64,000 nucleotides of DNA, taken from NCBI GenBank assembly GCA_964390745.1, contig CAYMIK010000001.1:48670-112669 (forward strand). Reading direction: 5' to 3'. Below are positions 3,532 through 24,125 of this stretch, in pieces. Positions within the stretch are counted from its first letter, which is position 1. Each line of letters begins with the position of its first letter. The DNA is from an uncultured Candidatus Saccharibacteria bacterium (GTDB lineage: Bacteria > Patescibacteriota > JAUYIX01 > CAYMIK01). The notes beneath the pieces are model-generated. The model saw nothing but the letters and a program-made list of their open reading frames with translations, was not told where the DNA came from and did no database searches. The position numbers and the translations under genes were made by a program.

Positions 3532-3581
3532 GGTGTCCTCCTCGGCTTGGCCGGTGATTGTGAGGTGGGTCTCGCGGCTTC

Positions 3582-3611
3582 ACTATAGAGGTGACTTTGG
3601 CTGTATGTCAA
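3582..3611 (-). promoter_or_regulatory. Sigma70-like promoter for island A operon (TTGACA-18-TATAGT on minus strand)
   Basis: Revcomp of 3582-3611 reads TTGACAtacagccaaagtcacctcTATAGT, about 50 nt upstream of the first island-A gene. Confidence 0.45.
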
Positions 3612-3651
3612 TGTGCTCGCAAACCCGCACAAAACCTGCTATTATACCCGC

Positions 3652-4239
3652 ATGATTCGACAACTTACCGGAACGATTATTTCTAAAGGAGCGGGCGAAC
3701 TGGTTTTGGACGTCCATGGCGTGGGCTACCAGGTCTTTATTACGGTACGCGATGAATCGGCGCTGCCTTTGGTTGGCGAATCTGCCACATTATATACGCT
3801 TCACTATATCCGCGAAGCCGCACAGGATTTGTACGGATTTTCTTCGTTGGAAGAATTATCAACATTTGAAATGCTGCTTGAAGTAAACGGCGTTGGTCCA
3901 AAGGCTGGCATGTCGATTCTTTCCAAAGCAAGTCCAAGCGAAATTCATCGAGCTATAACGAGCCAAGACACTTCTATTCTCACGAAGATATCTGGCATCG
4001 GGAAAAAGACTGCCGAACGAGTTGTCATGGAACTGAAGAATAAAGTAAATGATTTTGCTATTGCTTCCTTGGAAACGGGTATCGACATTTTGACACCCGG
4101 AACAGAAGCCCTCGATGCCCTTGTTGCTTTGGGCTGCACAAAAGATGAAGCAAAGATGGCACTTTCAAAGATTATGAAACCTGAAATGAAGATTGAAGAT
4201 CAGGTGAAAGAAGCATTGAAGTATTTGGGAACGAAATAA
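3652..4239 (+). CDS. ruvA: Holliday junction DNA helicase RuvA
   Basis: MIRQLTGTIISKGAGELVLDVHGVGYQVFITV... is a typical RuvA N-terminus (MIxxLxG), with HhH and C-terminal domain III. The ATG at 3652 lies about 9 nt after a TATTAT -10 box, so the mRNA may be leaderless. The track ORF begins earlier at 3613. Confidence 0.85.
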   Translation: MIRQLTGTIISKGAGELVLDVHGVGYQVFITVRDESALPLVGESATLYTLHYIREAAQDLYGFSSLEELSTFEMLLEVNGVGPKAGMSILSKASPSEIHRAITSQDTSILTKISGIGKKTAERVVMELKNKVNDFAIASLETGIDILTPGTEALDALVALGCTKDEAKMALSKIMKPEMKIEDQVKEALKYLGTK

Positions 4240-4250
4240 TTCAAAGACTC

Positions 4251-5240: not shown

Positions 5241-5250
5241 GAGTAGAAAA

Positions 5251-5583
5251 ATGGAAAAGAAGCTTTTCATTGTCTCGGGTGTCTTTCTGGTAATAGCCAT
5301 TGTCTTTGGTATTTTTTATTTTATGAATCGAACTCCTGTACAAAAAGAACCCGTAAACTTTGCAGACCCAGCAACCCTCGACTCTGATAACGATGGTCTT
5401 ACTGACGCAGAAGAGCAGCAAGCAAAAACAGACGTACATCAAGCTGACAGTGATGGAGATGGACTGACTGACTACCAAGAAGTGAAAACATTTTTCACGA
5501 ATCCCAACTCACAGGATACGGATCACGACGGATATAGCGACAAGGCTGAGATTGATACGAAGCATAATCCCAACGGAGCATAA
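5251..5583 (+). CDS. Small membrane-anchored protein with three thrombospondin-type-3-like Ca-binding repeats (DxDxDGxxDxxE)
   Basis: N-terminal TM helix (LFIVSGVFLVIAIVFGIFYF), then DSDNDGLTDAEE, DSDGDGLTDYQE, DTDHDGYSDKAE. Confidence 0.6.
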   Translation: MEKKLFIVSGVFLVIAIVFGIFYFMNRTPVQKEPVNFADPATLDSDNDGLTDAEEQQAKTDVHQADSDGDGLTDYQEVKTFFTNPNSQDTDHDGYSDKAEIDTKHNPNGA

Positions 5584-5588
5584 GAGCC

Positions 5589-6920
5589 ATGAAAGATTTT
5601 TTGAAGAAAATTCTTCCTAAATCTGCTATCAAGGTGTATCACAAAGTTTTGGTATTTGCTGCAGCTATGTGGTATGGGTTTCCATCGGATAAAATGATCA
5701 TCATTGGTGTCACGGGAACAAAGGGAAAAACCAGCACAACAAACTTCATTGCTGATATGTTGGAGTCCACGGGTGCAAAGGTTGCAGCCCTTTCTACGGC
5801 AGTCTATCGGCTTCCAGGAAAAAGTTGGGTGAACGCCACAAAGATGACGATGCCAGGCCGAACGCAATTGCAACGATTCTTGCAAAAAGCGCACAGAGCC
5901 GGATGCAAGTATGTTGTGGTAGAAACTTCCAGTGAGGGGATTGCTCAGAATCGAACAACCGCCATAAGTTACGACGTTGCCGTTTTTACAAACATCAGCC
6001 CAGAGCATATCGAGTCTCACGGGAGTTTTGAAAATTACAAAAAAGCAAAGCAAAAACTTTTCCAGGGGCTTATGCGTTCCCGGCGAAAAGCGGGTGTAAA
6101 AAAAGTTTCCGTGGTGAATCTTGACGATGAAGCTGCACAAGATTTTTTGAAGTTTCCTGCTGACGCGCACTACGGATTTTCAATGAGCGGAAAAACACAA
6201 GAAGGCGTTGAGGCGATTGAAGCCAGCAACGTTCAAACCTCACGCGCTGGCCTCACGTTTGATATTTCGGTGAACGGATTGAAAGATTCTGTTTTTGCAC
6301 CAATCTCTGGTGCCTTTCATGTACAAAATTTACTCGCTGCTATAGCAGTGCTGCTTTCACAGAATATTTCGTGGAAAAAAATTCGTGAAGCACTTACGGT
6401 GGTCAAGCCGGTTCCCGGCCGAATGCAATTTGTCGCGTACCAAAATCCATTTACTGTTATTGTTGATTATGCGCACGAACCAAAATCACTGGGAGTTATT
6501 TTACGCGAAGCACGCGACCTTGCTGGTGCTGATCATCAGGTTATCGTTCTCACGGGCGCACAAGGCGGTGGGCGAGATCACGCCAAACGTCCACAGATGG
6601 GCCAGGTTGCCAAAGAAAATGCGGACTTTATCGTTGTGACCAATGAAGATCCTTATGATGAAGACCCACAGAAAATTATTGATGATGTTGCTAGGGGTGT
6701 TCAGGATGCTGGTGGGGTAGAAGGCACAGATTTTGTAAAAGTTGCTGACAGAGCCGAAGCAATTCAAAAAGCTATCGACGTCGCCAAGCCCGGTGACGTG
6801 GTGGTACTAGCGGGCAAGGGCTCGGAAACGGTTATGGCAGTTCGAGAAAACAAAAAAGTTCCCTGGAGCGACTCAGAGGTGGTTCAGCGAATCCTTGATT
6901 CGAAGAAATCCGGGGCGTAA
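5589..6920 (+). CDS. murE: UDP-N-acetylmuramoyl-tripeptide synthetase (MurE-type Mur ligase)
   Basis: P-loop GVTGTKGKTSTT, a Mur ligase middle domain, a C-terminal domain and 443 aa are all typical of MurE. Confidence 0.8.
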   Translation: MKDFLKKILPKSAIKVYHKVLVFAAAMWYGFPSDKMIIIGVTGTKGKTSTTNFIADMLESTGAKVAALSTAVYRLPGKSWVNATKMTMPGRTQLQRFLQKAHRAGCKYVVVETSSEGIAQNRTTAISYDVAVFTNISPEHIESHGSFENYKKAKQKLFQGLMRSRRKAGVKKVSVVNLDDEAAQDFLKFPADAHYGFSMSGKTQEGVEAIEASNVQTSRAGLTFDISVNGLKDSVFAPISGAFHVQNLLAAIAVLLSQNISWKKIREALTVVKPVPGRMQFVAYQNPFTVIVDYAHEPKSLGVILREARDLAGADHQVIVLTGAQGGGRDHAKRPQMGQVAKENADFIVVTNEDPYDEDPQKIIDDVARGVQDAGGVEGTDFVKVADRAEAIQKAIDVAKPGDVVVLAGKGSETVMAVRENKKVPWSDSEVVQRILDSKKSGA

Positions 6921-7421: not shown

Positions 7422-8012
7422 ATGAAAAGCGAAAATATCCTTTTTGTTGATACGATAACGAAAAAAGCCGGTATGACCATTTCACGAGGCGGGAAGCTTT
7501 TTACTGCCCATTTTGGAGAGAGGCACCAATATTCTCGTGATCTTATTAGGGTCTTTGATACTGTTTTGAAGAAAGCGCGTCTGAAACCTGCCAATCTGGC
7601 CGGTGTTGTGGTCTTGGTTGGACCTGGCTCATATACCTCGATTCGTATTGGGGTTTCTTTTGCAAACGCACTGGGTTTTGCGCAGAACGTGCCTGTTGCG
7701 GCCAAAACTCTCTTTGAAGCGCTGCCTCATGGCTCCAAGGAGACAGTTCTTTTGGAAGCAGGCCGAGGGAATATCTTTTACCACAAAGCTTCCAAGGAAG
7801 GTGTATGGACAAATGCTGATTTGGCAAAAAAGACTGGCGAGTTTGTTGGTTTGGAACTTTCCGAAGAAACCCTGGCTCAATTTTCGAAGAAGCCAAAAGA
7901 AGCGACCCTTGATATTGCGGCCGTTTTGTCTGATGTGAAATGGCCCAAAAAATTTGCACCCGTTGCCGCGCACTACATCTTGCCACCGAATATTATGGTG
8001 AAGAAGAAATAA
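7422..8012 (+). CDS. tsaB: tRNA threonylcarbamoyladenosine biosynthesis protein TsaB (YeaZ-like)
   Basis: GPGSYTSIRIGVSFANALGFA matches the YeaZ/TsaB signature. 196 aa. Confidence 0.7.
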   Translation: MKSENILFVDTITKKAGMTISRGGKLFTAHFGERHQYSRDLIRVFDTVLKKARLKPANLAGVVVLVGPGSYTSIRIGVSFANALGFAQNVPVAAKTLFEALPHGSKETVLLEAGRGNIFYHKASKEGVWTNADLAKKTGEFVGLELSEETLAQFSKKPKEATLDIAAVLSDVKWPKKFAPVAAHYILPPNIMVKKK

Positions 8013-8100
8013 TCAAGAAAATAAGAACCAAGCCGGGCCTTGCGACGTCGCGGATGCGTCGTCGAAAGGTCACCGGCTGGCGCCAAGCTCTTGGGCTTGG

Positions 8101-8523
8101 CTATTCGCACAGGTTGAGCTGCTTTCGGCACGTGCTGCCGATCAGGTGTTCGGGGTCTAGGCTCGGGAGCTTACCCGAAACCAGGTAGAGAGGGTTGGGG
8201 TCCTCATACCCCCTGAGAAGGAAGACCTTCTCCTCTTGCATGACCCCTCCGGGATCGTGCGGGGGCTCGACCCTGCGGGTCGCGACCGCCACCACCTTCA
8301 GGTTCTCTGGTGTCTTGGGGTCGTTTTTCAGGTCCCACCAGTCGGTCACGACGGCGGTCTTCTTGGTCTCGAGGATCGCGATCTGCCGCTCGCGCTCCTC
8401 GAGCTTCCCGGCCGCGATGACCAACGTGAGCCCCGTGCCCGCAATGGCCAGGATGCCCACGAGGAAGATCATGCGACCGTAGAACTTGATCGTATCCTCG
8501 CGGTAATCTTTCTGAATCGCCAT
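8101..8523 (-). CDS. Hypothetical 140-aa single-pass membrane protein encoded in a high-GC island (island B)
   Basis: MAIQKDYREDTIKFYGRMIFLVGILAIAGTGLTLVIAAG... has a cytoplasmic N-terminus, one TM helix and about 100 aa outside. RBS GGGAGAG upstream. G+C far above the flanks. Hairpins plus a T-run lie downstream around 8028-8100. Confidence 0.55.
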   Translation of the reverse strand: MAIQKDYREDTIKFYGRMIFLVGILAIAGTGLTLVIAAGKLEERERQIAILETKKTAVVTDWWDLKNDPKTPENLKVVAVATRRVEPPHDPGGVMQEEKVFLLRGYEDPNPLYLVSGKLPSLDPEHLIGSTCRKQLNLCE

Positions 8524-9029
8524 TCGACTCTCCCTGCTCTTGTGCCAAAAGGCCGAAGTCGAGGTGATCCCGACATTCGTAAGAGACTCATCAAGGTATC
8601 ACAAATACCATCTTTTGTCAACCCTCTATTTAACGCATATTTAAGCCATTTTTTAGGGATAATTAATCTTTGGGCCGCACAATGAGTAGTAGCACCAAAG
8701 TCGCAATTATTATGCGAGGAGTCGGGGATTGGGAGGTGAAATAAGGACCTCGAACCCACCCATTAAGCTTTGGCTTAACCAAGCCTAATCCCCAGGGGTG
8801 TGGAAAAAATGGCCAAAAAAGCCCTTCGTGGAGGCCGAAAAATGAGGCTTAAATAAGCCCAAAAACCCCCTTTTTCTTGACATGAGCCGCCACGCATGAT
8901 AACCTTCGACCTAACAATTGCATACAAGGTCAAGGCCTAAAGGTTCATAGTTTATTACCTAATTAACCAACGAACCACGAACCAGAAGGTCTTTCGTACA
9001 ACCCCCGAAAAAGGGATTGTGCACTGTTC

Positions 9030-10238
9030 TTGTTGTGTCAATTAATTTTAGGAATCCCTATTCGTACTATTCTCTCCTCAGCAAAAAACACCGCTTCGAA
9101 GGCTACGTCTGAAATTGCTGCCCGATTCAAACAATTTGAAATCTCATCCCTTATCCGCAAACAAAATATTGTTCCTGCCATTGTCTTCGTAACGGCTGCC
9201 ATCTTGGTAGGGTTCAATATCTCGAATGCGTCATCTGGGTCTTCTACGGTTTCTGACCGTCCAAATAGTCTTTTGTACGACTATCTTGAAAAAGATGTTG
9301 TAACCGAAAAGGCGACTGCGGACTCAGGAACAGCTTCATACCAAACAGTTGCTACGTTGGCTTCGGCCTCTTCGGCAAACATTGGTGTTGCTACTGATGT
9401 CTATGACACCTCTGACGATACTACTCCCGACATGGCTGTTTCTCTTTCGGGACAGGTACTCGACAAGCCATTGCTTGCTTCTGCTGATACTATTACGTAC
9501 CGACGAGACAAAAGTGTTACTCATACCGTTCAACCGGGTGAAACGCTTATCTCTATCGCTCGTAAGTATGACTTGAAGCTCTCAACGGTTTTGTGGGCAA
9601 ACGGATTGAACACCGGAAGTGTTGTAAAGCCTGGCCAGAAACTTTTGATCTTGCCAGTTAACGGTACGCACCATGTGGTGAAAGAATCTGATACGCTTGA
9701 TTCGTTGGCTGCAAAGTTCAAGGTGAAAAAAGAAGTTATTGCTGCCTTCAATGACCTTGCTGGTGAGCAACTTCCAAAGGCTGGTTCTGACATTGTTATC
9801 CCTGGTGGATCAGATCCTGCTTCACTCGAACCTGCTCCTGAGCCTACGCCAGTTCGTACTACAACTCGAACACGCGTTGCTGCAGCTATTGAAAATCTTG
9901 CTCCTGTCGTACGCCTTGGCGGCGGCGGTGGTGGCCATCGATTCGCATACGGTTACTGTACGTGGTATGTTGCGCAAAAGCGTTATGTTCCATGGCCAGG
10001 AAATGCAAGTGCATGGCCTGCGAACGCTCGAGCCTACGGTTACTCTGAAGGTAAGACTCCTGCTGCTGGTGCAATCTATGCTGAACCATGGCTTGCAGGT
10101 GGCGTAGGACACGTATCATACGTTGAACGCGTAAACCCAGATGGAAGCTTCTTGATCTCTGAGATGAACTATGCTGGTTGGAACAAAAAGAGTTACCGAA
10201 CCGTCTCTGCTCATCCTCCAGGAATCTTCATCTACTAA
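9030..10238 (+). CDS. Membrane-anchored peptidoglycan hydrolase with two LysM domains and a C-terminal CHAP domain
   Basis: TM anchor IVPAIVFVTAAILVGF. LysM repeats (VQPGETLISIARKYDLKLSTVLWANGL... and VVKESDTLDSLAAKFKVKKEVIAAFNDL...). CHAP motifs (YGYCTWYVAQKR..., GHVSYVERV). Start uncertain: TTG at 9030 with no in-frame ATG before the TM segment. Confidence 0.75.
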   Translation: MLCQLILGIPIRTILSSAKNTASKATSEIAARFKQFEISSLIRKQNIVPAIVFVTAAILVGFNISNASSGSSTVSDRPNSLLYDYLEKDVVTEKATADSGTASYQTVATLASASSANIGVATDVYDTSDDTTPDMAVSLSGQVLDKPLLASADTITYRRDKSVTHTVQPGETLISIARKYDLKLSTVLWANGLNTGSVVKPGQKLLILPVNGTHHVVKESDTLDSLAAKFKVKKEVIAAFNDLAGEQLPKAGSDIVIPGGSDPASLEPAPEPTPVRTTTRTRVAAAIENLAPVVRLGGGGGGHRFAYGYCTWYVAQKRYVPWPGNASAWPANARAYGYSEGKTPAAGAIYAEPWLAGGVGHVSYVERVNPDGSFLISEMNYAGWNKKSYRTVSAHPPGIFIY

Positions 10239-10286
10239 CGTATCGATACGGCGCCTCACGGCGTCACTCGACATGACAGATAGAAA

Positions 10287-10320
10287 CACTCGGCCCTCTG
10301 TGGCCGAGTGTTTTGTTTTC
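10287..10320 (+). terminator. Rho-independent terminator after LysM/CHAP gene
   Basis: CACTCGGCC-ctctg-TGGCCGAGTG followed by TTTTGTTTTC. Confidence 0.7.
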
Positions 10321-10376
10321 TGGTATAATTTACGCGTGTTTCCAACGCAATTTTTTGCGTAACAGGCAAAGAGGCT

Positions 10377-10805
10377 ATGCCAAAATCAAAAAAGAAAAAA
10401 CAACTCGAAACTGAGAACACCGAAGTGCTTACGCAGGATTCTACGGATACGAAAGAAACGAATCAAAAAGATGACGACCTGCAACTCTCAGATCAAGACA
10501 TTTCGCAGATTATGGATTTGCGCGCCAAAAAACTTGGGGTGCTTTTAGCTACCTCTACTATGCCCGACGAAGTAAAAGAGGCATGGGTGGCGCTTCTCCC
10601 TGAACTCTCATTGAGCCAGTTGGATCGACTTACTAACATCTTGGAAGCCGAGTATTTGAATAACGGAACAGCACCTATCGATGAATTCTATTCCACCAAG
10701 TGGAAAGAGGCGAAGGAAGAGTATTTTGAAGCGATTGAAAAGATCGAAGATGATGCGAGAGAGAAAGTAGCGAAGTTTCAGAATATTCAAAAAGAGTTGC
10801 ACTGA
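10377..10805 (+). CDS. Small acidic hypothetical protein (142 aa), translationally coupled to giant protein
   Basis: RBS AAAGAGG. Product is acidic and K/E/D-rich. Its stop TGA overlaps the ATG of the next gene (TGATG at 10803-10807). Confidence 0.6.
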   Translation: MPKSKKKKQLETENTEVLTQDSTDTKETNQKDDDLQLSDQDISQIMDLRAKKLGVLLATSTMPDEVKEAWVALLPELSLSQLDRLTNILEAEYLNNGTAPIDEFYSTKWKEAKEEYFEAIEKIEDDAREKVAKFQNIQKELH

Positions 10806-13800
10806 TGGGAATGTTTGAAGGCCCAAAACCACCGAAACCCAAGAAACCAGCAAAGAGTTTGTTTGGAAAAGTTTTAGGTTCGAAAAAACGTAAACAACCG
10901 ACAAGGGGTCCTGAGCTTCCTGATTCTGATCGTTTGGGTCCCGTAGAAATTTTTGATGCACAATTCGAAGCACCGGATTCGCATGAGCCGAGTTTTGAAC
11001 TTCAGAGCCGAGGAACCGAGGCTATCGTAGCAGAGTTTCGAGAGATATACGAAGAGCCGGCCGTAACTGATGTCGCAACCGAGGCCCCTGCTGCTCCAAA
11101 AGAAACACGCGAACCCGAACGAAGTGAAGAGGATAAGCGCATTGATGACGCAGTAAACTTCCTTCGTGGGAAAAAGGTGAAGATTTACAATCCCGAAAGC
11201 GGTGTCGAAGAAGAGTATGACGTTCATAGCCTTCGAGTGCGCAATGGCGTTGGCATGGTTGATGGCTCCTCCTTTGATAGCAAAAACGCATTTAGTGAGA
11301 TTCCGCTCGATTTGGTATTGGCGCAACACGGGAAGCAACCGTGGGGGCTTAAGACAATGAACGATGCTGCCAAAGAGGGACTCAAAAGATTTACGGCTGA
11401 CAAGGCGTTGTTCACTCCAGAAAACATTGCAGACATTGAAAGCTTTATGAGCGGCGAGAATACCACTGGTAGTTTGGCGCGCGAGCACATGATGCGGGCT
11501 ATTTATGATTACCTTTATCATTGTTCTGGAGAGAATGGGAGAGAGGAGCCAGAGAGGTATTTTAGTACCTTTGATGCTTCTGTTACAGAAACAGCCACAA
11601 CTCCTGACGGATCATTTGGCCATGAGGCGTTACAACCTGAACGTACTGAGGAGCAAAAAAGAATTGAGGAGACGGTTGCCTTTTTCCGAGACAAGAAGGT
11701 TAAGATTCCAAGACCAGAAAATGGCAAGGAAGATGATTTTGAAGTTGATAGCATCAAGGTGCGCAATGGTATTGGTATGGTTGTTGCTTCCAAAGAAGGG
11801 CCAAATGGCGAAAGAGTGCGTGGCGAATTTCCGCTCGATCTTGCCTTGTTGCAACACGGCGAATCTCCGTGGCGCATTGAGGCAATGAACGATGCTGCGC
11901 GTAGTGCAGTCTTGAGATTCATGGATGCAGCACCGCCAGAAATGCAAAAGGAAATTGATCGCTACTTCTTTGGTCACGAAAACCCTGCACCCGAACGTAC
12001 AGACGCGAGGCTCATTGGATCTGTTTATTTCTACGCGTATGGTGAAAATGGAGCGAATGGGAGCACGGACGTTGAAAGATCATTCGATGTTCATAGCACG
12101 GCTGCTCAAGAGGTGGGCACGGCTGCTCCTAGCCCTACAGGCGCAGAAGTTCCACCGGTCGTAGTGACAGCAACCCCAGAAAGCTCAGGAACAGAGACAC
12201 CACGAACCGAACCTTCTACGGAAACGGCCTCACCTGAATTACATACTCCACTCACTGAAGAAGAGAAAATGGTGCGATCACGAGAGGCGCTTCGGGACGC
12301 GATTTCTGAACTTCAGGGAAAACAAATTTGGGCCTACAATGTTGCCACAGGAGAATTTGAACAAAACTTTATTTTAGAGAACGGCACCGTAAACAATGGT
12401 GTTGCCATGGCGCGTGTGCGAAAGTTGGGTTCTACCGAACCCATGTCGCAACTTTCTTTGCAAAGCATGGATGAAATTTTGAGTATGAATGGTCTTCAGC
12501 CTTGGGGCATGCGATATATGTCACCGGAAGCACAGGCCGTCATAGCAGAGGCAACATGGAGAGATCACGAACACGCAGAACTCATCACTGATGTATTTTC
12601 GGGAAGAAGCGACTTTGGCCAACTCACACCAGAGCAACGCCGTGTTATTGAGCAGCTTCGAATTCAGGCGTACAGCGCTAAGCCCGGTTTTCATAATGAG
12701 AATACCGGCGCTGCTTTGCCCCAGCAACAAACAGAATCGCAACCACAACAAGAGTCGCAGCCACAACCAAAGAGCGCAGGGTCTCTTGGTAAGAGAATGA
12801 TCGAGGCATTCAAGAATCTTCCCAAGAATGTCGCTGAACGTGCAAAAAGTATTCCTCAAAATGTTATAAAGTTCTTAAAGGAAAATCCCGAGAGCATCGG
12901 CTACTCCGTTGCTGGGTTTGTTGCGTTTCGTGCTATGCACTTTGTAGGTATACAGGCCATACGCGATCTCTATCAGTATGGAAAACAAAAAGCGGTTATC
13001 GATGGGTATGCTCGTGTTTTTGAAAAAACCCGTCCGGGCATGGCACATACACTTGAGGATATGGGCCGATACTTAAATCAGCATGGAGAACAAAAGCCAA
13101 AGGGCATAAAGAAGGATGCTAACGTAACTTCGGGCCGAAACCAGCTTATTGCGAAACGGAATGAATTCGATACCAGCCCGAAGGGCGCTGAATATCGGGC
13201 ACTTCGTGAAGCAAAAAGAAACGGTGAGCTATCTCGAAAGGACGCACGGCGCCTGGAAGAACTTCACGAGGAACGTTTTCCTATGCGTGAAAGCCTGGTA
13301 TCGTTCCGTGAACAACTGGGCGTTATTAAAGGTGGCGACAAGGCTGATTCACCAGAACGTCAGCTTTTGCGAAACTATTTCAATGAAGCCACGACTCTGG
13401 AGAAGGGCCAGCTTGGTATTTTGAAGTTGCGCTCAGAAGACATCGTATCGAAGTACATGGAAACAAAGATGAGTGGTGTGCAAGCGCTACGAAGTGCCAC
13501 GACGGCAGCCATAATGACGTATGTGTACTCGCACCCACCAGTAGCAGTTTGGGCAGGAAAAGCCAGAGTTATGACGATGGGATTCTTTGATGTTTGGCAG
13601 AAACGAAACGACGAAGAACGATTCAATAAAATCCAAAACGATCTTCGATCGCAAGAGAAAGGCTACAAAAAACTACCAGAGCAATTGAATATTCAATCGG
13701 CTGTAAGCCAAGCTGCGACAAGAATATATCATGAGCTTCGCGGAAAACCAGACGCGTCAGCAGCGGAACAACAAGAGACAAAACGGGCACGTATCAAAGC

Positions 13801-16540
13801 CTTGGCAGTTGTTACAAACTACGCACTGGCTGGCGGCGCATTGCGACCATTCATACGAATGGGCTCAGAGAGCGCAAGTTGGATTTCAGAAAAGGCTTCG
13901 AATGGTATTGATCTTGTTTCTGAAAAGATTCCTGGACACCTCGATCTTCACCCTGGTCACTGGGCAGCGAAAGTAGAAGATGCTCTGCGCCTTCATGAGC
14001 ACAAAACGGCCATTGATGCTGGTACGACCGGGGATGTTTCCAAATCTGTAGAGTCAGCGAAAAAAGCTCTTGATGCGGCTGCGGCTGTAGGCGCACAAAA
14101 ACCTGATGCAGAAATTTTGAAACATCTCGCGGAACAAGCACCGCAAGACACAAATGTACGACTCGAAGCGCCCCTAGTAGGTCTCGACGCAAAGAGCGGT
14201 GTAACCCCAGAAGACATTTCGCAAACACTTGAAAAACTCAAGGTTTCTCAAGATGATCTTTCTCGTCTAGTAAAGATTGAACTAGCCGGGAACCCATCGT
14301 TGCATAATGCCCATGAGGCACTTCAAGTTTTGCGTGAAGCGAAGCCTGCCGAGATTGAACAGTTCAAAGAAATCATGGGAAATCGTGACATCGCTCATGA
14401 TGTCGTAATTGAAACACAGGCGCGATTCAGAGATCAGGCTGCAGCGCTCGAAAAAGTATTAGGCAAAGATTCTCCAGCTGTTCAGGCAATTATGGCACAA
14501 AACAATGATCGACTCTCTGACGTTCTCACGGCACAGGCTGGTGGAGGCAAACACACCGAAGCAGATGTTGAGCGAGCCTTCCGCGTTGCCTTCGGAGAAA
14601 ATCCAACGCTTCATATCACTGATACTCACGTCCTTGGAACGATGATTCAGAACAGTCCAGAAGTGCAAACATTCTATTCCGCGCATGAAAACGTTCCGAT
14701 TAATGCACGAAATATTGTCGCTGTTGTAGAAGGAAAGGGGAATCAAGTCTTGCAAGCTATGAACAAACATGTAGATGCGGAATTGTTTGATAATCTTGCA
14801 GCCAACGCTCGCCCTAATGCCCTCATGAATGTGCCTGTTGCTTCTGGTGCCGCTGAGGATGCCATTCGTCAGGCAGCAGAGATTAAAACTCAGATGGCAG
14901 AAATCACGGGTGGAACTGTTGCGGACGTTGATAACTTGATGCATCGCGTTGGCGCACAAACAAACGAAGGACTCTTTGCAGTGATTCGTCGCGTGCAGCT
15001 TGATCGTCATTTGGAAGATCCGCAGCAAGCTCTTCGAATGTTGGCGCACATGAACGATCAACAACTTGGCCCCTATGCGGAAGTTGGAAGAGAGCAAGGC
15101 ACGCTCCGTCCACTCTCTGCAGCTGAACTGAACACCGTTGGTCAGCCGGTGCCACAGAGCGTTGCTGAAACGGTTGGCTCCGAGGCAGCACCAGAATCAA
15201 CACCAGAACCTGATGGCGAACCAGGCTCAGCAGGAGTTACGTACCCAGACCAGCCAGGAAGATTGGGCTCCTATTCTCAGAGTGAAGAAAATTTCCTTCG
15301 CAACTCCGGTGCCTTGAAACCAGAAGATGGCCCGGCACCATTTGATCAAACACAACGCCAAATGGATTATCTGCGCAATGCACCACGCCCTGATCAGCAG
15401 AATTATTTGCGAAATGCGCCACAAGGTTCATCCCGCCCACTCGTTCGTGAACCAATCATGAAACAAAGCGAGGGTGCACGGATGACCCACCCAGCCTGGG
15501 AGCCTGGCCAGCATGGAATCCGAAATCCTGAACGCGTCCCTTCGGCTCTTCAGGTTCATGAAGTTCCGGGTCAACCATCGCATATCGACGTTGCGCCTCC
15601 ACCTGGCCTGCACGTTGAACAAGTTCCTGATAGCGAAATTTGGATCAGCAAGGGAGAACTTGCGCCTATTACCGATGAAAAACTGAATGAGCTGCGTGAA
15701 AACTATTTGAAATTGCCACTCGAAGATCGCCAGAAGGCTGAAAATTGGGCGAATGTTGCTGCGCGATACCATCTCCGTCCTGGTGTTTTACGCGACATAA
15801 CAAACCCGATTGATGGACGCCTTCGTGTAACGATGGATACAAATGGTGATATAGAAATTCAGGATAGATTTGGCAGCCATCCGTACCGAGCTCCGAGAAA
15901 CGTAGCAGCTGACCCGTATTTCCAACAAGCTTTTGAAAAACCAGTCGAAGAAACCTATCGATCGGCCTATATCTCAACAAGGGGCAAACTGACTGAAGGT
16001 GAAACCACGACAACGGATTACGGTGGCGACAAGCAAACCGTTCATCTTGATGAAGACGGCACCTACACGAGAATAAGTCCTCGAGGCACAGAGATCTGGC
16101 CTGATCCGGACAATGAAAACCCAATGCAGCCAAGTACGATTCCATTTTCACAAACGGCACCGCAGGAACAACCGCAAAATCAAATGGGGTCACAAGACCA
16201 AATGCCACCTCGCGCACGATCTGGTGAACGCCAGCCAATCTTCAAGGAAGGTTCGCGAGGTTCATACGGAAACCAGGGTTATGGCGGTGGCGGAAATGGC
16301 GGTGAACGCCAACCCATCATGAAAAACGGCTCACAAGGTTATGGGGGTTATAGTGGTGAACGCCAACCCATTATCAAGAACGGCTCGCAGGGCTATGGCG
16401 GAAATAGTGGTGGACGTGGCTACAATAGTGGAGAGCGCGAGCCTGTTCCTCCTGTCTGGCAGCAGCATCCACGAGGCATTGTTCCTCGCGGGGGATCTGG
16501 GAGACGAGGGGATGCCCCAAGTATCAACATAAATCTGTAA
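10805..16540 (+). CDS. Giant hypothetical protein (1911 aa) with three tandem ~150-aa internal repeats and a G/Q/Y-rich C-terminal repeat tail
   Basis: Single uninterrupted ORF. Three divergent copies of one domain, approximately nt 11100-11570, 11600-12065 and 12245-12665 (shared pattern KRI(D/E)..V.F.R.KKVKI..PE.G.E...V.S..VRNG.GMV, then ...PLDL.L.QHG..PW....MNDAA). C-terminus has GERQPI(M/F/I)K(N/E)GS.GYGG repeats at about 16210-16440. Confidence 0.75.
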   Translation: MGMFEGPKPPKPKKPAKSLFGKVLGSKKRKQPTRGPELPDSDRLGPVEIFDAQFEAPDSHEPSFELQSRGTEAIVAEFREIYEEPAVTDVATEAPAAPKETREPERSEEDKRIDDAVNFLRGKKVKIYNPESGVEEEYDVHSLRVRNGVGMVDGSSFDSKNAFSEIPLDLVLAQHGKQPWGLKTMNDAAKEGLKRFTADKALFTPENIADIESFMSGENTTGSLAREHMMRAIYDYLYHCSGENGREEPERYFSTFDASVTETATTPDGSFGHEALQPERTEEQKRIEETVAFFRDKKVKIPRPENGKEDDFEVDSIKVRNGIGMVVASKEGPNGERVRGEFPLDLALLQHGESPWRIEAMNDAARSAVLRFMDAAPPEMQKEIDRYFFGHENPAPERTDARLIGSVYFYAYGENGANGSTDVERSFDVHSTAAQEVGTAAPSPTGAEVPPVVVTATPESSGTETPRTEPSTETASPELHTPLTEEEKMVRSREALRDAISELQGKQIWAYNVATGEFEQNFILENGTVNNGVAMARVRKLGSTEPMSQLSLQSMDEILSMNGLQPWGMRYMSPEAQAVIAEATWRDHEHAELITDVFSGRSDFGQLTPEQRRVIEQLRIQAYSAKPGFHNENTGAALPQQQTESQPQQESQPQPKSAGSLGKRMIEAFKNLPKNVAERAKSIPQNVIKFLKENPESIGYSVAGFVAFRAMHFVGIQAIRDLYQYGKQKAVIDGYARVFEKTRPGMAHTLEDMGRYLNQHGEQKPKGIKKDANVTSGRNQLIAKRNEFDTSPKGAEYRALREAKRNGELSRKDARRLEELHEERFPMRESLVSFREQLGVIKGGDKADSPERQLLRNYFNEATTLEKGQLGILKLRSEDIVSKYMETKMSGVQALRSATTAAIMTYVYSHPPVAVWAGKARVMTMGFFDVWQKRNDEERFNKIQNDLRSQEKGYKKLPEQLNIQSAVSQAATRIYHELRGKPDASAAEQQETKRARIKALAVVTNYALAGGALRPFIRMGSESASWISEKASNGIDLVSEKIPGHLDLHPGHWAAKVEDALRLHEHKTAIDAGTTGDVSKSVESAKKALDAAAAVGAQKPDAEILKHLAEQAPQDTNVRLEAPLVGLDAKSGVTPEDISQTLEKLKVSQDDLSRLVKIELAGNPSLHNAHEALQVLREAKPAEIEQFKEIMGNRDIAHDVVIETQARFRDQAAALEKVLGKDSPAVQAIMAQNNDRLSDVLTAQAGGGKHTEADVERAFRVAFGENPTLHITDTHVLGTMIQNSPEVQTFYSAHENVPINARNIVAVVEGKGNQVLQAMNKHVDAELFDNLAANARPNALMNVPVASGAAEDAIRQAAEIKTQMAEITGGTVADVDNLMHRVGAQTNEGLFAVIRRVQLDRHLEDPQQALRMLAHMNDQQLGPYAEVGREQGTLRPLSAAELNTVGQPVPQSVAETVGSEAAPESTPEPDGEPGSAGVTYPDQPGRLGSYSQSEENFLRNSGALKPEDGPAPFDQTQRQMDYLRNAPRPDQQNYLRNAPQGSSRPLVREPIMKQSEGARMTHPAWEPGQHGIRNPERVPSALQVHEVPGQPSHIDVAPPPGLHVEQVPDSEIWISKGELAPITDEKLNELRENYLKLPLEDRQKAENWANVAARYHLRPGVLRDITNPIDGRLRVTMDTNGDIEIQDRFGSHPYRAPRNVAADPYFQQAFEKPVEETYRSAYISTRGKLTEGETTTTDYGGDKQTVHLDEDGTYTRISPRGTEIWPDPDNENPMQPSTIPFSQTAPQEQPQNQMGSQDQMPPRARSGERQPIFKEGSRGSYGNQGYGGGGNGGERQPIMKNGSQGYGGYSGERQPIIKNGSQGYGGNSGGRGYNSGEREPVPPVWQQHPRGIVPRGGSGRRGDAPSININL

Positions 16541-16596: not shown

Positions 16597-16636
16597 TTGA
16601 CAAATCCTTGACAATATATCAGAGACTGGTATACTA
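16597..16636 (+). promoter_or_regulatory. Sigma70-like promoter upstream of rpoB (tandem TTGACA boxes, then TATACT)
   Basis: cccTTGACAaatccTTGACAatatatcagagactggTATACT. About 75-nt leader to rpoB; RBS AAAAAAGGAG before the ATG at 16714. Confidence 0.5.
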
Positions 16637-16713
16637 ACTCCATGCAAGTTTTTTGTGTTATCTAGGCCTCAAAAGCCATTTTTTAGCTCATTTCAAAAAA
16701 GGAGCCTCTTTTT

Positions 16714-19700
16714 ATGTCCAAAAACGTGACCGTTAGCGCAGAGCATCTGCGTAAGTTTTTCACCAAAAATCATGCGGCTGCACCCCTTCCAGCGCTGATC
16801 GAAAACCAAATCACATCATATAACTGGTTCATTAAAGAAGGTTTGCGAGAACTTTTCGACGAAATTACCCCAATTGTGGGTTATACCGGAAAGGACTACG
16901 AACTCCACTTCTTGGATTACTACCTCGACGAACCTAAGTTCGAAGAAACCGTAGCCAAAGAGCGAAACACTACCTACGAGGCTCCGCTTCGCGTACAGGT
17001 TCGCTTGATTAACAAGAAAACCGGCGAAATCAAAGACCAAGAAATTTTCTTGGGCGATTTTCCACTTATGACCGAACGCGGAACGTTCATCGTGAACGGT
17101 GTTGAACGCGTTATTGTATCGCAGCTTATCCGATCTGCTGGTGTGTTCTTTACGGCTGAACATGTTCGCGGTGAAAAGATGTTTGGTGCCAAGGTTATTC
17201 CAAACCGTGGTGCGTGGCTTGAATTTGAAATGGACCAAAACGGCGTTATCTATGTAAAGATCGACCGAAAACGAAAAGTTGCCGCTACTTCATTGTTGCG
17301 CGCCTTTGGTTATGGAAGCGACGAAGAAATTCTTGAACTCTTCAAAGATGTAGACACCAACCCACAACGCCAATTTATTACCAAAACCCTGAAGAAAGAC
17401 TCCGCAAAGACCGAAGAAGAAGGCTTGAAGGAAGTCTACAAGCGTATTCGACCAGGCGATTTGGCAACAGCTGATAACGCACGTTCGATGATTGAATCGA
17501 TGTTCTTTGAGTTCGACCGCTACGACTTCGGTCGTGTTGGTCGATTTATGATCAACCGCAGATTGGGAATCGATGTTGCCAACACCAAAGAAAACCGAGT
17601 GTTGCGACGCGAAGATATTGTATTGATCTTGAAACAAATCATTAAGCTCACTAACGAACAAGGTGAAGCAGACGACATTGACCACTTAGGAAACCGACGA
17701 ATCCGTTCCGTAGGTGAATTGATTCAGAACAAGTTCCGAATTGGTTTGGCACGTATGCAACGAATCGTTGTTGACCGAATGTCTACATTGGATATGGACG
17801 CCGTTGCGCCATCTCAGTTGGTAAACGCACGACCAGTGATTGCTGCTGTAAAGGAATTCTTCACCAACTCACAGTTGTCACAGTTCATGGATCAAACCAA
17901 CCCACTCGCTGAGTTGGAACACAAGCGACGCCTTTCGGCCATGGGACCTGGTGGATTAAGCCGTGAACGCGCAGGATTTGATGTTCGTGACGTGCACCGA
18001 TCTCACTACGGACGCATTTGTCCTATTGCTACCCCAGAAGGTCCAAACATTGGTTTGGTGGGACACTTGTCTTCATTTGCAAAGATTAATGACTACGGAT
18101 TTATCGAAACACCTTTTTCAAAGGTTGTGAAAGCTTTGCCGAACAAGGCCGACAAGACCGAAGGCCGCATTGCATCGGAAGATATTAAGGGCATTGTAAA
18201 AGCTGGTGAAAAGATCACTGAAGCTGCTGCCAAGAAACTCGAAAAAGAAAAAGATTTGGAAGTAATTCCTGTGAAGCCTTTTGTTTCGAGCGAAGTTGTT
18301 CACTTGAACGCCTTTGAAGAAGGGGAATCTATTACCACTCCTGCAACAACACCTATTGATTCTGAAGGATACTTTGTTGATGCGATGATCCCAGCACGTG
18401 TAAAAGGTGAACCGGGACTCGTTGAAGCAGAGCGCGTTGACTATGTTGACGTTGCTGCAAACCAGATCGTTTCTATCTCAACCTCACTTATTCCTTTCTT
18501 GGAACACGACGACGCAAACCGAGCCTTGATGGGTTCGAACATGCAACGCCAGGCTGTTTCTACGCTTGTTCCTCACTCTCCAGTGGTTGGAACCGGTGTT
18601 GAAGGACGAGCTGCTCGAGACTCAGGACAAGTAGTTGTTTCGAAGCATGCTGGTAAGGTTGTAAAAGTTGATTCTGCTCAGATCGTTATTCAGGATGAAA
18701 AGAAAAACCTCCACGAATATCACTTGCGCGTGTTTGATCGATCCAACACTTCAACTTGTATCAATCAGCGACCAATCGTCAATATTGATCAAGAAGTTGA
18801 AGTTGGCGACGTACTTGCTGACGGTGCTTCTACCCAAGACGGAGAATTGGCACTCGGACAGAACATCTTGGTTGCCTACATGGGCTTTGGTGGTGGAAAC
18901 TACGAAGACGCTATCTTGATTTCTGAACGATTGGTTCAGCGAGATGTCTTTAGCTCGATCCACATCGAAGATTATTCTATTGATGTTCGTGATACCAAAC
19001 TTGGACCTGAAGTTGTTACCCGAGATATTCCAAACGTTGGTGAAGAAAAATTGAAAGATCTTACCGAAGAAGGAATTATCCGAATCGGTGCTGAAGTAAA
19101 ATCTGGTGATATCCTTGTTGGAAAGATTACTCCAAAGGGTGAAACAGACTTAACGGCTGAAGAGCGACTCTTGAAGGCAATCTTCGGCGAACAAGCTCGC
19201 GACGTAAAGGATACTTCACTCTATTTGCCTCACGGTGAATATGGAAAAGTTGTTGATGTAAAAATCTTCTCACGAGAAACCGGAGACAAGTTGCCAACCG
19301 GAGTTACAAAGACCATTCAGGTTTCTATTGCTCGTATCCGAAGAATCCAAGTAGGCGACAAGCTTGCTGGACGCCACGGTAACAAGGGTGTTATCTCTCG
19401 AGTTATGGCCGTTGAAGATATGCCACACATGGCTGACGGAACCCCAATCGACTTAATCTTGAACCCACTCGGTGTTGCAAGCCGTATGAACGTAGGACAG
19501 ATTTTAGAATGTGTTCTTGGTTTCGCCGCACACAAACTTGGATACAAAGTTGCTACCCCAGTTTTGGACGGTGTTCCTGAAGATGTTATCAAGGGCGAAC
19601 TTACCAAGGCTGGCTTGCCAACTGATGGAAAGATTCAGCTCTACGATGGCCGAACTGGTGAAGCATTCGACAACAAGACAACCGTTGGAATTTCGTACAT

Positions 19701-20148
19701 CTTGAAACTTCACCACTTGGTTGATGAAAAGATGCACCAACGATCCATTGGACCCTACTCACTTGTTACCCAGCAACCTCTTGGTGGTAAGGCACAATTT
19801 GGTGGTCAGCGATTTGGTGAAATGGAAGTTTGGGCACTCGAAGCGTACGGATCAGTTCACACCTTGCAAGAAATTTTGACGATCAAGTCTGACGACGTGG
19901 TTGGTCGCTCAAAGACCTATGAATCGATTGTGAAGGGTGAGCCTATTAAGAAGCCAAACATCCCAGAATCATTCAACGTATTAGTACGTGAATTGAAGGG
20001 CTTGGGATTGAACGTTGAATTGCTTGGTTATGAAGAAGAACAGCCAGATGAAGATGCTCCGAAAGCAGTAGCAGAAGCGAAGCCAGAAGCAAGTGAAGTC
20101 AAAGAAGAGACATCTTCCGAAGTTGTAACCAAAGAGGAGACAAAATAA
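16714..20148 (+). CDS. rpoB: DNA-directed RNA polymerase subunit beta
   Basis: 1144 aa with conserved RpoB blocks ([17 protein letters not shown]..., [25 protein letters not shown]). Confidence 0.95.
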
Positions 20149-23100
20149 TGACACCCCAAACTGTAACAACTCCAAAAAGAATCCGCGCTGCGCACGACTT
20201 TGAAGCCGTTCGCTTGCGACTTGCTTCTCCTGACACCATTTTAGAGTGGTCACACGGTGAAGTTCTTAAACCTGAAACGATTAACTACCGAACCCAAAAG
20301 CCAGAACGAGATGGCTTGTTCTGTGAACGAATCTTTGGACCAACCAAAGACTGGGAATGTTACTGTGGTAAGTATAAGCGCATTCGTTACAAAGGAATTA
20401 TTTGTGACAAGTGTGGCGTTGAAGTTACCCGATCTATCGTTCGACGTGAACGAATGGGCCACATTGGTCTTGCTGTTCCTGTTTCGCACATTTGGTTCTT
20501 GCGCGGTGTTCCAAGCAAGATTGGTGCCGTTCTGGACCTCAGCGTTCAACAGCTCGAAAAAGTTATTTACTTTGCAAGCTACATCATCACACAAGTAGAT
20601 GAAGCCGCAAAAGAACAAGCAACCAAACAAATTGCTCAAGAATTCAAGCAGAAGAAAGGGGAGATCGACAAATTCTTTGACGATCAATTCTCTCAATTGA
20701 AACAAGACAAGCTTGAAGCCTTGAAGAAAGCTGGGAGCGACAAAGACAAGAAAGATGTTGAAGGCCGATTCGGCGAAGAAACAGCTCGAAAGAACTCTGA
20801 AAAGCAGTTGCAAAATGAACGACTTGAAGAAGCCGTTGAAGTTGCACGCAAAGAATTGAAAGACCTCAAGGCGCTTCGAATTATCTCTGAACTTGAATAC
20901 CGTGACCTTTCTATGAAGTATGGCCACGTCTTCAAGGCAAGCATCGGTGCTGAAGCTTTGCGCGGCATTGTAGAAAAGATTGATCTTGATGCTTTGGCAA
21001 AAGAACTTGAAGAAGAAATCAAACATGCTGTTGCTTCCAAGAAAAAGAAGATTACACGCCGATTGAAGGTTATCAAGGGAATGAAGAATGCCGGTGTTCG
21101 TCCTGAATGGATGTTCATTACCGTGCTTCCCGTTATTCCACCAGACCTTCGACCAATGGTTCAGTTAGACGGTGGCCGATTTGCCGCATCTGACTTGAAC
21201 GATTTGTACCGACGCGTGATTAACCGAAACAACCGCTTGAAGCGATTGATTGAATTGAATTCACCAGAAGTTATCTGCCGAAACGAAAAGCGTATGTTGC
21301 AAGAAGCGGTTGACGCTTTGATCGACAACAACGCACGACGTGGTAAGGCTGTTGCTTCCTCAACTGGTCAGAAGCGAACATTGAAGTCGCTCGCAGACCT
21401 CTTGAAGGGTAAGCAAGGACGATTCCGTCAGAACTTGCTTGGTAAGCGCGTTGACTACTCGGGACGATCGGTAATTGTTGTTGGTCCTACGTTGCGATTG
21501 AATCAGTGTGGTATTCCAAAGAAAATGGCACTCGAACTTTACAAGCCATTCGTTATTCATTTGTTGATTGCGAATGAATTTGCCTACAACGTTCGATCCG
21601 CTGGAAAATTGATTGAACAAGAACGCCCAGAAGTTTGGGATATGTTGGAACAGGCAATTGAAGGAACACACGTCTTACTGAACCGAGCTCCTACACTTCA
21701 CCGACTTGGTATTCAGGCCTTCTCGCCAGTTTTGGTGGAAGGAAAAGCTATCCAGTTGCACCCAATGGTATGTACCGCATTCAACGCTGACTTCGACGGT
21801 GACCAGATGGCTGTTCACTTGCCACTCACTGTTCAGGCTCGTGAAGAAGCAAAGAACATCATGCTTGCAACACAGAACCTTTTGAAGCCTGCAACAGGTG
21901 AACCAATCGTTTCTGCTACCCAGGACATGGTTTTGGGTTCGTACTATATGACAGGAATTGTTCCAAAACGAAAAGGTGAAGGAAAGACGTTCGCATACTC
22001 TCGTGAAGCTATTCTTGCTTACGAATCAGGCGCGATTGATATCAATGCAGAAATCAACGTACGACTTCGCGAAGGTGAAATTGTAAAGACATCTGCTGGA
22101 CGAATTTTGTTCAACCTCATTTTGCCAAAAGAAATGTGGTTCATCAATGAACAAATGAACAAGAAATCATTGAAGAAAATCATCAGCCGCGTATTTGAAG
22201 AATATGGTCGCGATCGATGTGTAGAAGTTATCGACGAAATCAAGAAGACCGGTTTCGAATATCTTACTCGATCTGGTTTGTCATGGGGAATTGATGACTT
22301 GCAGATCCCTGAAGCGAAAAAAGGTTTGGTTGATGCTGCCGACAAAGAAATTGACGAAGTAAATGAACACTTCCGCATGGGTCTCTTGTCTGACGAAGAG
22401 CGATATGCCAAGACCATTGAAATTTGGTCTCGAGTGAAAGGCCAAGTGGAAATCGAAGTAAAGAAGAAGTTGAACTCAGTAACCAACCCAGTTCACGCCA
22501 TGATTGAATCTGGTGCTCGTGGTTCTTGGGGACAGACAGCTCAGATGACTGGTATGCGTGGATTGATGGCTTCTCCATCAGGACGCACCATCGAGCTTCC
22601 TATTAAGAACTCCTTCAAAGAAGGCTTGGACGTTCTTGAATACTTCGTATCTACTCACGGTGCCCGAAAAGGTATGTCCGATACGGCTCTTCGAACGGCA
22701 AACGCTGGTTACCTCACGCGACGACTTGTAGACGTTTCTCAAGATGTTGTTGTAACGGAAGAAGATTGTGGTGACAAAGAAGGCTTCACGGTTTCTCGAA
22801 AAGAAGATGAAGATATGGGCCTTGGCTACCCAACCAAATACTTTGGTCGCGTAGCTATTGATACCGTTGTTGATCCAAAGACTGGCGAAGTGCTCGTTCA
22901 AGCAGGGGAATACATTGATGGCGAAAAGATTGCCAGAATTGAAAAAGCCGCTGTTGAATCGATTCACATTCGATCAGTATTGCACTGTAAGACCGCTCGT
23001 GGAATCTGCCAGAAGTGTTACGGATTCGACCTTGGAAACAACCGACCAGTAAACATGGGTTCCGCAGTTGGAATCGTTGCTGCTCAGTCCATTGGTGAAC

Positions 23101-24125
23101 CAGGAACACAGCTTACGATGCGTACCTTCCAAATGGGTGGTATCGCTGGTGGAGACATTACACAAGGTTTGCCACGTGTTGAAGAATTGCTCGAAGCTCG
23201 CGCTATTAAGAAGCCTGCAGCCATTGCAGAATTCGATGGAAAGATTGAAATCGAAGATCGCGACAACCAAAAGATCGTGAAGCTCGTTTCAGCTGATGTT
23301 TTGACAGACGAATTCCCAAATGACGATACAATCAAGAAGCTCCGAGTCAAGCACGATCAGAAGGTTCAGAAAGATGATCTCTTGTTTGAAACCAGCGCTG
23401 GTGACAAGGTTCGAGCACGAAACAACGGAATCGTTCGTGTATTGAAGAATAAGGTTATGCTGGTTCATGAAACGAACATGGTAAAGGAATACATTGCTCC
23501 ACGAGGAATTGGTCTCTGGGTTGCAAAGGGTGACTTAGTAACTGCAGGAACGCAGCTTACCGATGGACACCTCGACTTGCGTGAACTCTTTGCCATCTCT
23601 GGGCTCACCGAAGTTCAAAAGTACATCATCCGTGAAGTACAAAACATCTACTCGAGCCAAGGTCAGGATTTGAACGACAAGCACATCGAAATTATTATTC
23701 GACAAATGTTCTCACGAGTTCGCATTATCGATTCTGGTGATACAGCATTCTTGCCAGATGAAGTTGTGAGCCGACCACGTGTTGAACAAGAGAATAAGCG
23801 TATCAAGAAAGAAGGCGGAAAGCTTGCGACCTACGAAGATATCTTGCTTGGTATCACGAAGGCCTCGCTCTCAACCGACTCCTTCTTGGCAGCTGCATCG
23901 TTCATTGAAACAGCCAAGGTCTTGATTGACGCTGCTGTGAGCGGAAAAGTTGACTACTTGAACGGTCTCAAAGAAAACGTGATCATTGGTAAGTTGATCC
24001 CTGCTGGATCTGGCTACCTCGAGCGACAAAACCGCTTGAAGCGAATGAAGGGTCACGAACTTGTGAAACTCTCCGAAGATTCTCTCATGACAAGCGAGCG
24101 AATTGGACAGAGAAATAGAGACTAG
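20148..24125 (+). CDS. rpoC: DNA-directed RNA polymerase subunit beta-prime
   Basis: 1325 aa. Zn-finger CxxC...Cxx[13 protein letters not shown] catalytic motif, trigger loop. 1-nt stop/start overlap with rpoB. Confidence 0.95.

Follow-up and report, generated by a model that had tools for sequence, protein, structure and literature searches.

The window analysed here is a stretch of 64,000 nucleotides from an uncultured Candidatus Saccharibacteria bacterium (contig CAYMIK010000001.1 of assembly GCA_964390745.1, positions 48,670 to 112,669), a member of the Patescibacteria, or Candidate Phyla Radiation (CPR). Directly upstream of rpoB it carries two adjacent open reading frames (ORFs), both unbroken, which encode a small acidic protein (10377..10805; 142 aa, pI 4.6) and a giant protein (10805..16540; 1911 aa, pI 5.6, one Cys). 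Coordinates are those of the window, and features lie on the plus strand unless stated otherwise. The two genes form a translationally coupled, autonomous operon with its own putative promoter, restricted to one narrow lineage of Patescibacteria and seen in four uncultivated genomes. They represent a new family that could be matched to no known sequence family and, as far as the one reliable structural model (of repeat module R1) can tell, to no known fold; its four members are all unannotated.

The gene pair and its control signals

The two genes meet in the sequence TGATG at 10803-10807, in which the TGA stop codon of the small gene shares its A with the ATG start codon of the giant gene, giving a stop/start overlap of 1 nt. 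The coupling junction as a whole (10791..10807) includes a purine-rich, Shine-Dalgarno-like AAAGAG in the last codons of the small gene, 8-13 nt 5' of the giant ATG, and in the relatives AAGGAG or AAGGAA precedes TAATG with the spacing seen in the window. Coupling through TGATG, proposed in an earlier sequence-only reading of this DNA, is thus borne out.

The giant ORF is a real coding sequence. Its relative synonymous codon usage correlates with that of housekeeping genes in frame (r = 0.74), compared with 0.01 and 0.18 in the other two frames, and its GC content by codon position is coding-like. The frame is unbroken in three complete copies from independent assemblies, namely the window, L081, and the copy found in L082, L083 and L164, so that the frameshifts that could have exposed it as an artefact did not appear. 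The sole interruption in a fourth, partial copy (L166, positions 1700-1760 and 2403-5804) is a scaffold gap of 10 N that splits the giant gene; these breaks look like assembly problems rather than pseudogenes, because rpoB on the same contig is also called in several pieces.

Upstream, the pair is preceded by the intrinsic terminator of the neighbouring LysM/CHAP gene (10283..10314), consisting of a 13-bp stem followed by a T-run. The terminator is also present in L081 and L082, and six of its base pairs are kept through two-sided, compensatory changes across the three genomes. Directly 3' of it lies an extended -10 element, TGGTATAAT (10321..10329), invariant across the three aligned genomes and read from its sequence as the putative promoter of the small and giant genes. 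At the other end, the operon is bounded by the rpoB promoter (16608..16635; TTGACA and TATACT spaced by 16 nt, with TG), and no terminator was found between the giant stop codon and this promoter. Because a terminator and TGGTATAAT lie upstream and no terminator lies downstream, the pair is insulated from the hydrolase gene and has a putative promoter of its own, and its transcripts may continue into rpoBC.

Nucleotide similarity among the four genomes is undetectable inside the giant gene and starts ~40 nt past its stop codon, just 5' of the rpoB promoter. The promoter, with tandem TTGACA and TG-TATACT, and a leader of ~80 nt (together 16608-16713) are almost invariant in the window, L081, L082 and L166. 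The leader contains three small hairpins, one of them GGCyTyAAAAGCC followed by a T-run, and could be an attenuator or another regulatory element; it has no Rfam match, and its near-invariance leaves no covariation to assess.

Architecture of the two proteins

Across the family, the giant protein is built from a basic N-terminal tail, one to three modules of ~155 aa, a helical core of ~750 aa and one or two C-terminal domains of ~200 aa, together with variable low-complexity linkers and a variable tail. In the window, residues 1-102 (10805..11110) start with a Lys/Pro-rich basic segment, continue with an acidic Pro-rich stretch and are probably disordered. The two full-length homologues, P0003 and P0004, also open with a basic run (MAKKKKKR.., MGKKARQR..).

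Three modules follow, delimited by a hidden Markov model (HMM) built from the three copies: R1 (aa 103-257, 11111..11575; 267 bits), R2 (aa 277-431, 11633..12097; 246 bits) and R3 (aa 482-634, 12248..12706). The sequence-only reading had described three diverged tandem domains of ~150 aa, and the modules lie within ~40 nt of where it had placed them. Pairwise BLASTP supports the internal repeats, with 42% identity over 149 aa between R1 and R2 (E = 3e-36) and 34% over 89 aa between R1 and R3 (E = 2e-12), the comparison of R2 with R3 alone being weak (E = 0.04). R3, the ancestral copy, aligns with aa 490-608 of P0003 and aa 410-533 of P0004 and is the sole one common to the homologues. The window genome has three modules and the homologues one; conservation of the repeat domain in related genomes therefore holds for a single copy, the triplication being specific to the window genome.

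Structure prediction, which had been recommended together with the original reading, gave a confident AlphaFold2 model of R1 (predicted local distance difference test, pLDDT, 80; predicted template modelling score 0.78), with one helix, a four-strand bent SH3-like sheet and four helices. Its best structural neighbours are SH3-like small beta-barrels (Tudor, chromo, WYL, CarD-RID) followed by helix-turn-helix-like bundles. The alignments with these neighbours cover 48-62 residues only, and the fold scores do not rise above what small barrels and helical bundles give as noise; moreover, the domain order is reversed relative to WYL regulators, and the R modules have an acidic pI of ~5.

Beyond R3, a Gln/Pro-rich linker with an 18-nt tandem repeat at 12733-12767 (Tandem Repeats Finder) leads to the conserved helical core (aa ~691-1425, 12875..15079), where identity to both homologues is ~24% over ~1000 aa (E = 2e-35 and 8e-69). 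The AlphaFold2 run on residues 497-1425, based on a three-sequence alignment, predicts an all-helical secondary structure for aa ~660-1425, in agreement with the long helical middle noted earlier, at a low confidence (pLDDT 47). The core is followed by a Pro/Gln/Gly-rich linker with (F/Y)LRN repeats (15080-15526) and a conserved C-terminal domain (aa 1575-1770, 15527..16114) with the motifs LRPG..DG..MD.NG and DPYF.Q. Four copies of this domain of ~200 aa, one in the window, one in P0003 and two in P0004, align well, and hhalign detects no relation between it and the R module.

The protein ends in a basic (pI 9.9), lineage-specific tail of low complexity rich in Gly, Gln, Tyr and Arg (16115..16537). 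Its GERQPI.K.GS.GYGG repeats span nt 16223-16474, with GERQPI at aa 1807, 1833 and 1851 and a degenerate GEREPV at aa 1876, and at the DNA level a 54-nt unit is repeated 2.4 times (16288-16416, Tandem Repeats Finder). The tail with four repeats that had been reported is thus indeed repetitive and rich in Gly, Gln and Tyr, with three intact copies and one degenerate one; it is not conserved, being absent from both P0003 and P0004. The tail, earlier likened to those of cell-envelope or prion-like proteins, is therefore not a defining feature. Against an envelope reading, signal peptide, anchor and wall-binding domain are all missing from the giant and all present in the true surface proteins of the window.

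No transmembrane (TM) segment was found in the giant, its maximal Kyte-Doolittle hydropathy over 19 aa being 1.38, compared with 2.1-3.1 for the TM helices of FtsK. Across the three full-length giants this maximum is 1.0-1.4, with 0-1 Cys and a pI of 5.6-6.0. The Lys/Pro-rich, basic N-terminus is non-hydrophobic and shows no signal peptide, and no wall-binding domain (CW_binding_2, LysM, SH3b, SLH) was matched in Pfam even at E<=5; in contrast, clear signal peptides, and wall-binding domains too, are found in the CWB2 proteins at 24243 and 28022. The giant alignment showed neither a motif of the Walker type nor one of another catalytic kind, and its invariant positions are chiefly occupied by Gly, Pro, Arg, Asp/Glu and hydrophobic residues. 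The giant is thus a modular protein whose modules have been amplified in particular lineages, and nothing in it can be recognised as an export signal, a membrane segment or a catalytic motif.

The small protein opens with a Lys-rich segment (MPKSKKKK), which gives way to an acidic stretch that varies and then to a conserved, probably helical region of ~60 residues with the core RKLxVxLAxSxxPxxVxxxWxxLLxxxxLxQxDxLTxILExEYLxNxTA. Homologues of 125 and 128 aa with 36-44% identity occupy the same position in L082 and L081. No family match was found for it. The L082 homologue (P0007, 9624-10001) carries the IMG name 'predicted RecB family endonuclease', which looks spurious, because Pfam is blank at E<=5 and no D..(D/E)xK motif of the PD-(D/E)XK kind occurs among the invariant residues; RecB-family identity was rejected for the small protein.

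Distribution and rate of change

Neither protein has a Pfam match even at E<=5, nor one in NCBIfam or PHROGs; no sequence match was found in the PDB by single-sequence or profile search, none by tblastn in 50,697 phage and 72,556 plasmid records, and none in IMG/VR. PADLOC gave no significant match, the best hit (E = 0.013) being to a homologue only. The statement of the sequence-only reading that it recognised no family therefore stands in Pfam, NCBIfam, PHROGs, PADLOC and the PDB.

An exhaustive phmmer search of giant aa 1-1200 against 1.84 billion cluster representatives returned three non-self matches, of which P0003 (1633 aa; JGI 3300045330/3300045331, Logan SRR23702522) and P0004 (1927 aa; Logan DRR235453) are true homologues, both unannotated and called 'hypothetical protein'. 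The third, P0005 (phmmer E = 3e-16), is a 13-fold tandem-repeat protein, each copy of which weakly matches aa 1105-1178 (pairwise E ~5e-4), and was rejected because its score is inflated by the repeats. A further partial giant, also unannotated, was found via its RpoB cluster in L166 (NCBI GCA_964573485.1, CAZNJS010000023.1) and is 36% identical to P0003 and 27% to P0004. A word-index search returned the query alone, both for the whole protein and for the three-member alignment, and for the repeat alignment it missed even the query; for a protein so rich in low-complexity sequence these negatives are uninformative, as P0003 and P0004 were missed though present in the collection, and the exhaustive HMMER search is the valid test.

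The homologues share R3, the helical core and the C-terminal domain with the window giant. Across R3 and the core (~1000 aa) P0003 and P0004 are ~24% identical to it, and their N-terminal ~450 aa and tails cannot be aligned with it. The common gene order is ruvA, femAB, Mur ligase, tsaB, (DHH), LysM/CHAP, small, giant, rpoB, rpoC and CWB2 protein, and the pair lies at the same locus, between LysM/CHAP and rpoBC, in all four genomes. Members are thus recognised by an R module, the core and the C-terminal domain, by an acidic partner overlapping by 1 nt and by a position between LysM/CHAP and rpoB, and all of these were found. Scans anchored on RpoB covered 185,579 species genomes (GTDB) and JGI metagenomes, in which the best RpoB identities were 70% and 68%, and neither the small nor the giant gene was detected by tblastn or HMM in 160 RpoB-anchored loci. 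In the nearest outgroups, L001-L003, the Mur ligase gene abuts rpoB. In the literature, no relevant account of giant proteins in Patescibacteria was found.

The position of the giant recalls the canonical rplKAJL-rpoBC order, in that the gene directly precedes rpoB, is co-directional with it and is not separated from it by a terminator, and the sequence-only reading had placed it where rplJ/rplL normally stand. Identity with L10 or L7/L12 was rejected, with no Pfam or NCBIfam match for either ORF and no match of E. coli L7/L12 in the window by tblastn. Among the fetched loci, rplL lies upstream of rpoB in 37, which are more distant and belong mostly to Firmicutes and Actinobacteria, and in none of the closest Patescibacteria loci, so that a replacement of rplJ/rplL is unsupported for this phylum. 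The giant thus differs from the canonical arrangement in having no similarity to L10 or L7/L12, in being followed by a separate rpoB promoter and in that its relatives already have no rplJL at this site.

The giant gene changes faster than any other gene compared in the region. Comparing the window with L082 and L081, respectively, protein identity is 93% and 96% for RpoB, 85% and 86% for RuvA, 78% and 74% for the Mur ligase, 69% and 73% for FemAB, 59% and 51% for TsaB, 57% and 58% for LysM/CHAP, 36% and 44% for the small protein and 24% and 25% for the giant; for RpoC it is 93% (L082 only). The nonsynonymous divergence dN between the window and L082 is 0.06 for RpoB, 0.056 for RpoC, 0.14 for RuvA, 0.18 for the Mur ligase, 0.23 for FemAB, 0.38 for TsaB, 0.37 for LysM/CHAP, 0.65 for the small protein and 0.94 for the giant, so that the giant sequence has changed ~15 times as much as that of RpoB. 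Among family members the identity of the giant ranges from 24% to 36%, compared with 93-96% for RpoB between genomes. Synonymous sites are saturated between species, with a proportion of synonymous differences (pS) of 0.72-0.79 in ordinary genes; because the proportion of nonsynonymous differences (pN) in the giant, 0.54, is below this value, the giant is still under constraint while being the fastest-evolving gene of the region. The only close pair, L082 and L164, differs by one base in the giant. With pS saturated, these comparisons speak neither for nor against positive selection on the giant.

In the window, the pair is preceded by ruvA, femAB, a Mur ligase gene, a tsaB-like gene and a gene for a LysM+CHAP peptidoglycan hydrolase, and followed directly by rpoB (16714..20148) and then by rpoC (20148..24125), two large CWB2+PKD surface protein genes and ftsK. 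The tandem surface proteins (1225 and 1054 aa; 24243-31186, directly after rpoC) have signal peptides, PKD-like domains and triple CW_binding_2 domains; their arrangement is kept in L082 and L165, and they could be S-layer-like wall proteins. Between tsaB and LysM/CHAP, the DHH-family gene that follows tsaB in the relatives (L082:6314-7243, L081:5614-6531; in L081 together with an M23 peptidase gene) has no counterpart at window positions 8012-9030, the slot being filled by a high-GC island and ~470 nt that appear to be non-coding. Short islands with a GC content of 60-66%, in a window with 47%, lie at 1801-3601, 8001-8601, 40001-40501, 41701-42201, 46901-47901 and 56201-57901 and are mutually unrelated; the one at 8001-8601 contains a minus-strand ORF of 140 aa with one hydrophobic helix. 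Different, non-homologous high-GC minus-strand ORFs occupy the same slot, from tsaB/DHH to LysM/CHAP, at L082:7326-7850 and L081:7324-7713, and the slot could be a hotspot for foreign gene cassettes from an uncertain high-GC donor. Elsewhere in the window, 37069-39941 (minus strand) holds a complete bacterial set for non-homologous end joining, with Ku, an ATP-dependent ligase and a LigD primase-polymerase, which is notable for a small CPR-type genome. Finally, a ribosomal protein S6 domain forms residues 120-209 of a 294-aa ORF with a TTG start (46214-47098, minus strand) that runs into a high-GC island, implying either an over-called start or unusual S6 extensions.

Possible functions of the pair

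Our tentative preference is that the giant would be a soluble, cytoplasmic, multivalent scaffold or adaptor that is made together with a small binding partner, a reading we hold to be possible rather than probable. The repeated folded modules would be protein-binding units and the linkers spacers, and the small acidic helical protein, made in a constant ratio to the giant, would attach to it as a co-subunit or as a solubility chaperone. What selection preserves would then be chiefly length, modularity and a few contact motifs and less the exact sequence, and this would account for the very rapid divergence as well as for the duplication of modules in single lineages. A role at a division, envelope or host-attachment site is speculation, although it fits the nearby cell-wall and division genes. 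The scaffold is preferred because this organism clearly marks its exported proteins and the giant is unmarked. Several points weigh against it: the missing signal peptide is also compatible with non-classical export; divergence as fast as this is more usual in surface or conflict proteins than in scaffolds inside the cell; the pLDDT of 47 means that the core may hide an enzymatic or known fold; and the exhaustive homologue search covered aa 1-1200 of the giant.

The nearest functional analogy may be offered by the terminal organelle of Mycoplasma, whose cytoskeletal proteins are scaffolds inside the cell that contain proline-rich domains and aromatic/glycine-rich EAGR boxes (PMC9262362). MG312/HMW1, MG218/HMW2 and MG200 are large, lineage-restricted, non-enzymatic intracellular scaffolds of a host-attached bacterium with a reduced genome, and they combine proline-rich acidic regions with aromatic/glycine-rich motifs, as the giant does (PMC9262362). 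The analogy would extend to how the proteins work only, in that no relationship in sequence or fold was detected. The organisms differ as well, since the one studied here is walled (FemAB, Mur ligase, CWB2 proteins) and an attachment organelle is known in Mycoplasma and none is known here. That the pair would form the core of a new intracellular CPR scaffold, either cytoskeleton-like at a division or host-attachment site or as a giant, co-expressed platform tethered to RNA polymerase, with a new, copy-variable SH3-like-plus-helical module, we regard as improbable.

The main rival to the scaffold is export by a non-classical route, in which the giant would be a host or envelope factor, such as an episymbiont adhesin or effector in an evolutionary arms race against its host, with the small acidic protein serving as its dedicated export chaperone. 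We consider this somewhat unlikely. It would suit the fastest-evolving gene of the neighbourhood (24-36% identity, against 93-96% for RpoB), the variation of module count and tail between lineages, the wall hydrolases and CWB2 surface proteins nearby and a translation-coupled small acidic partner resembling a secretion chaperone, and the predicted SH3-like barrel could be a wall-binding module. However, the giant has no signal peptide, TM segment, CWB2, LysM or other anchor, which the genuine surface proteins of this organism do have. No secretion-system gene was found in the window, where FtsK is normal, with four TM segments and alpha and gamma domains, nor does Pfam detect a WXG/LXG or toxin domain. 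Nor does a pN value below the saturated pS give positive evidence for diversifying selection.

It is quite improbable that the giant acts as a transcription or nucleic-acid factor, co-expressed with rpoBC by read-through and binding RNA polymerase or RNA through Tudor/SH3-like modules, its basic N-terminus and an RGG/YGG tail. Such a role would account for its adjoining rpoBC in four genomes with no terminator after the giant stop, for the Lys-rich N-termini of both proteins and for the Arg/Gly/Tyr tail of the giant. Yet none of the fold scores exceeds the noise level of small barrels and helical bundles, the R modules have an acidic pI of ~5, conservation does not extend to the tail, and rpoB has a strong, conserved promoter of its own. 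Furthermore, a partner of an enzyme conserved at 93-96% would be expected to keep a conserved interface, whereas the giant is 24% identical, and the gene is absent upstream of rpoB in other Patescibacteria.

Two readings are largely excluded. A small acidic protein encoded just 5' of a very long, helical one, close to a hydrolase gene, resembles the arrangement of chaperone and tape-measure genes in phages. Domestication of what was left of a phage or mobile element, for example of a tail-assembly chaperone with a tape-measure-like protein, would account for this layout with a peptidoglycan hydrolase next door. The likeness stops there, as no homology and no phage context were found: there is no PHROG match, no tblastn match in the phage and plasmid records and no IMG/VR relative; no other phage gene lies nearby, the flanks being tsaB, LysM/CHAP and rpoBC; codon usage is that of the host; and synteny on the chromosome is fixed in four genomes, which makes such an origin very unlikely. 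Least credible of all is that the ORF is decaying or has no function and has stayed open by chance or through hitch-hiking, which could explain the very low conservation and the abundance of low-complexity sequence but not a frame of 4.9-5.8 kb that stays open in three lineages (and in L166 apart from the scaffold gap) despite many indels, a coding signature with host codon usage, conserved promoter, terminator and coupling signals and a pN below saturation, in a small genome of a kind that would rarely be expected to keep 0.5% of its DNA idle.

Three further specific identities were tried and rejected. For a type VII secretion substrate (WXG100/LXG) there is no such Pfam match and no WXG motif in the small protein, and the sole FtsK-family gene is a canonical FtsK. 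A Sec-exported, wall-anchored surface protein of the CWB2/LysM type was dismissed for the giant, which has no signal peptide, TM anchor or wall-binding domain. An anti-phage defence system was set aside in the absence of a significant PADLOC match, the locus being syntenic in all four genomes.

What is new about the pair is a protein family that cannot be placed; a new kind of mechanism is not implied. Although CPR genomes are small, a gene of 5-6 kb that cannot be placed in any family is kept here at a fixed site beside the most conserved operon of the genome. The family also offers a new, confidently folding module of ~155 aa and a C-terminal domain of ~200 aa for structural study. If the giant is one more fast-evolving hypothetical protein, the value of the work is confined to the clean description of a new family. 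If instead it is a structural scaffold or serves interaction with hosts, this lineage would have made an invention of its own, relevant to how cells are built, or how they attach to their hosts, in uncultivated episymbionts.

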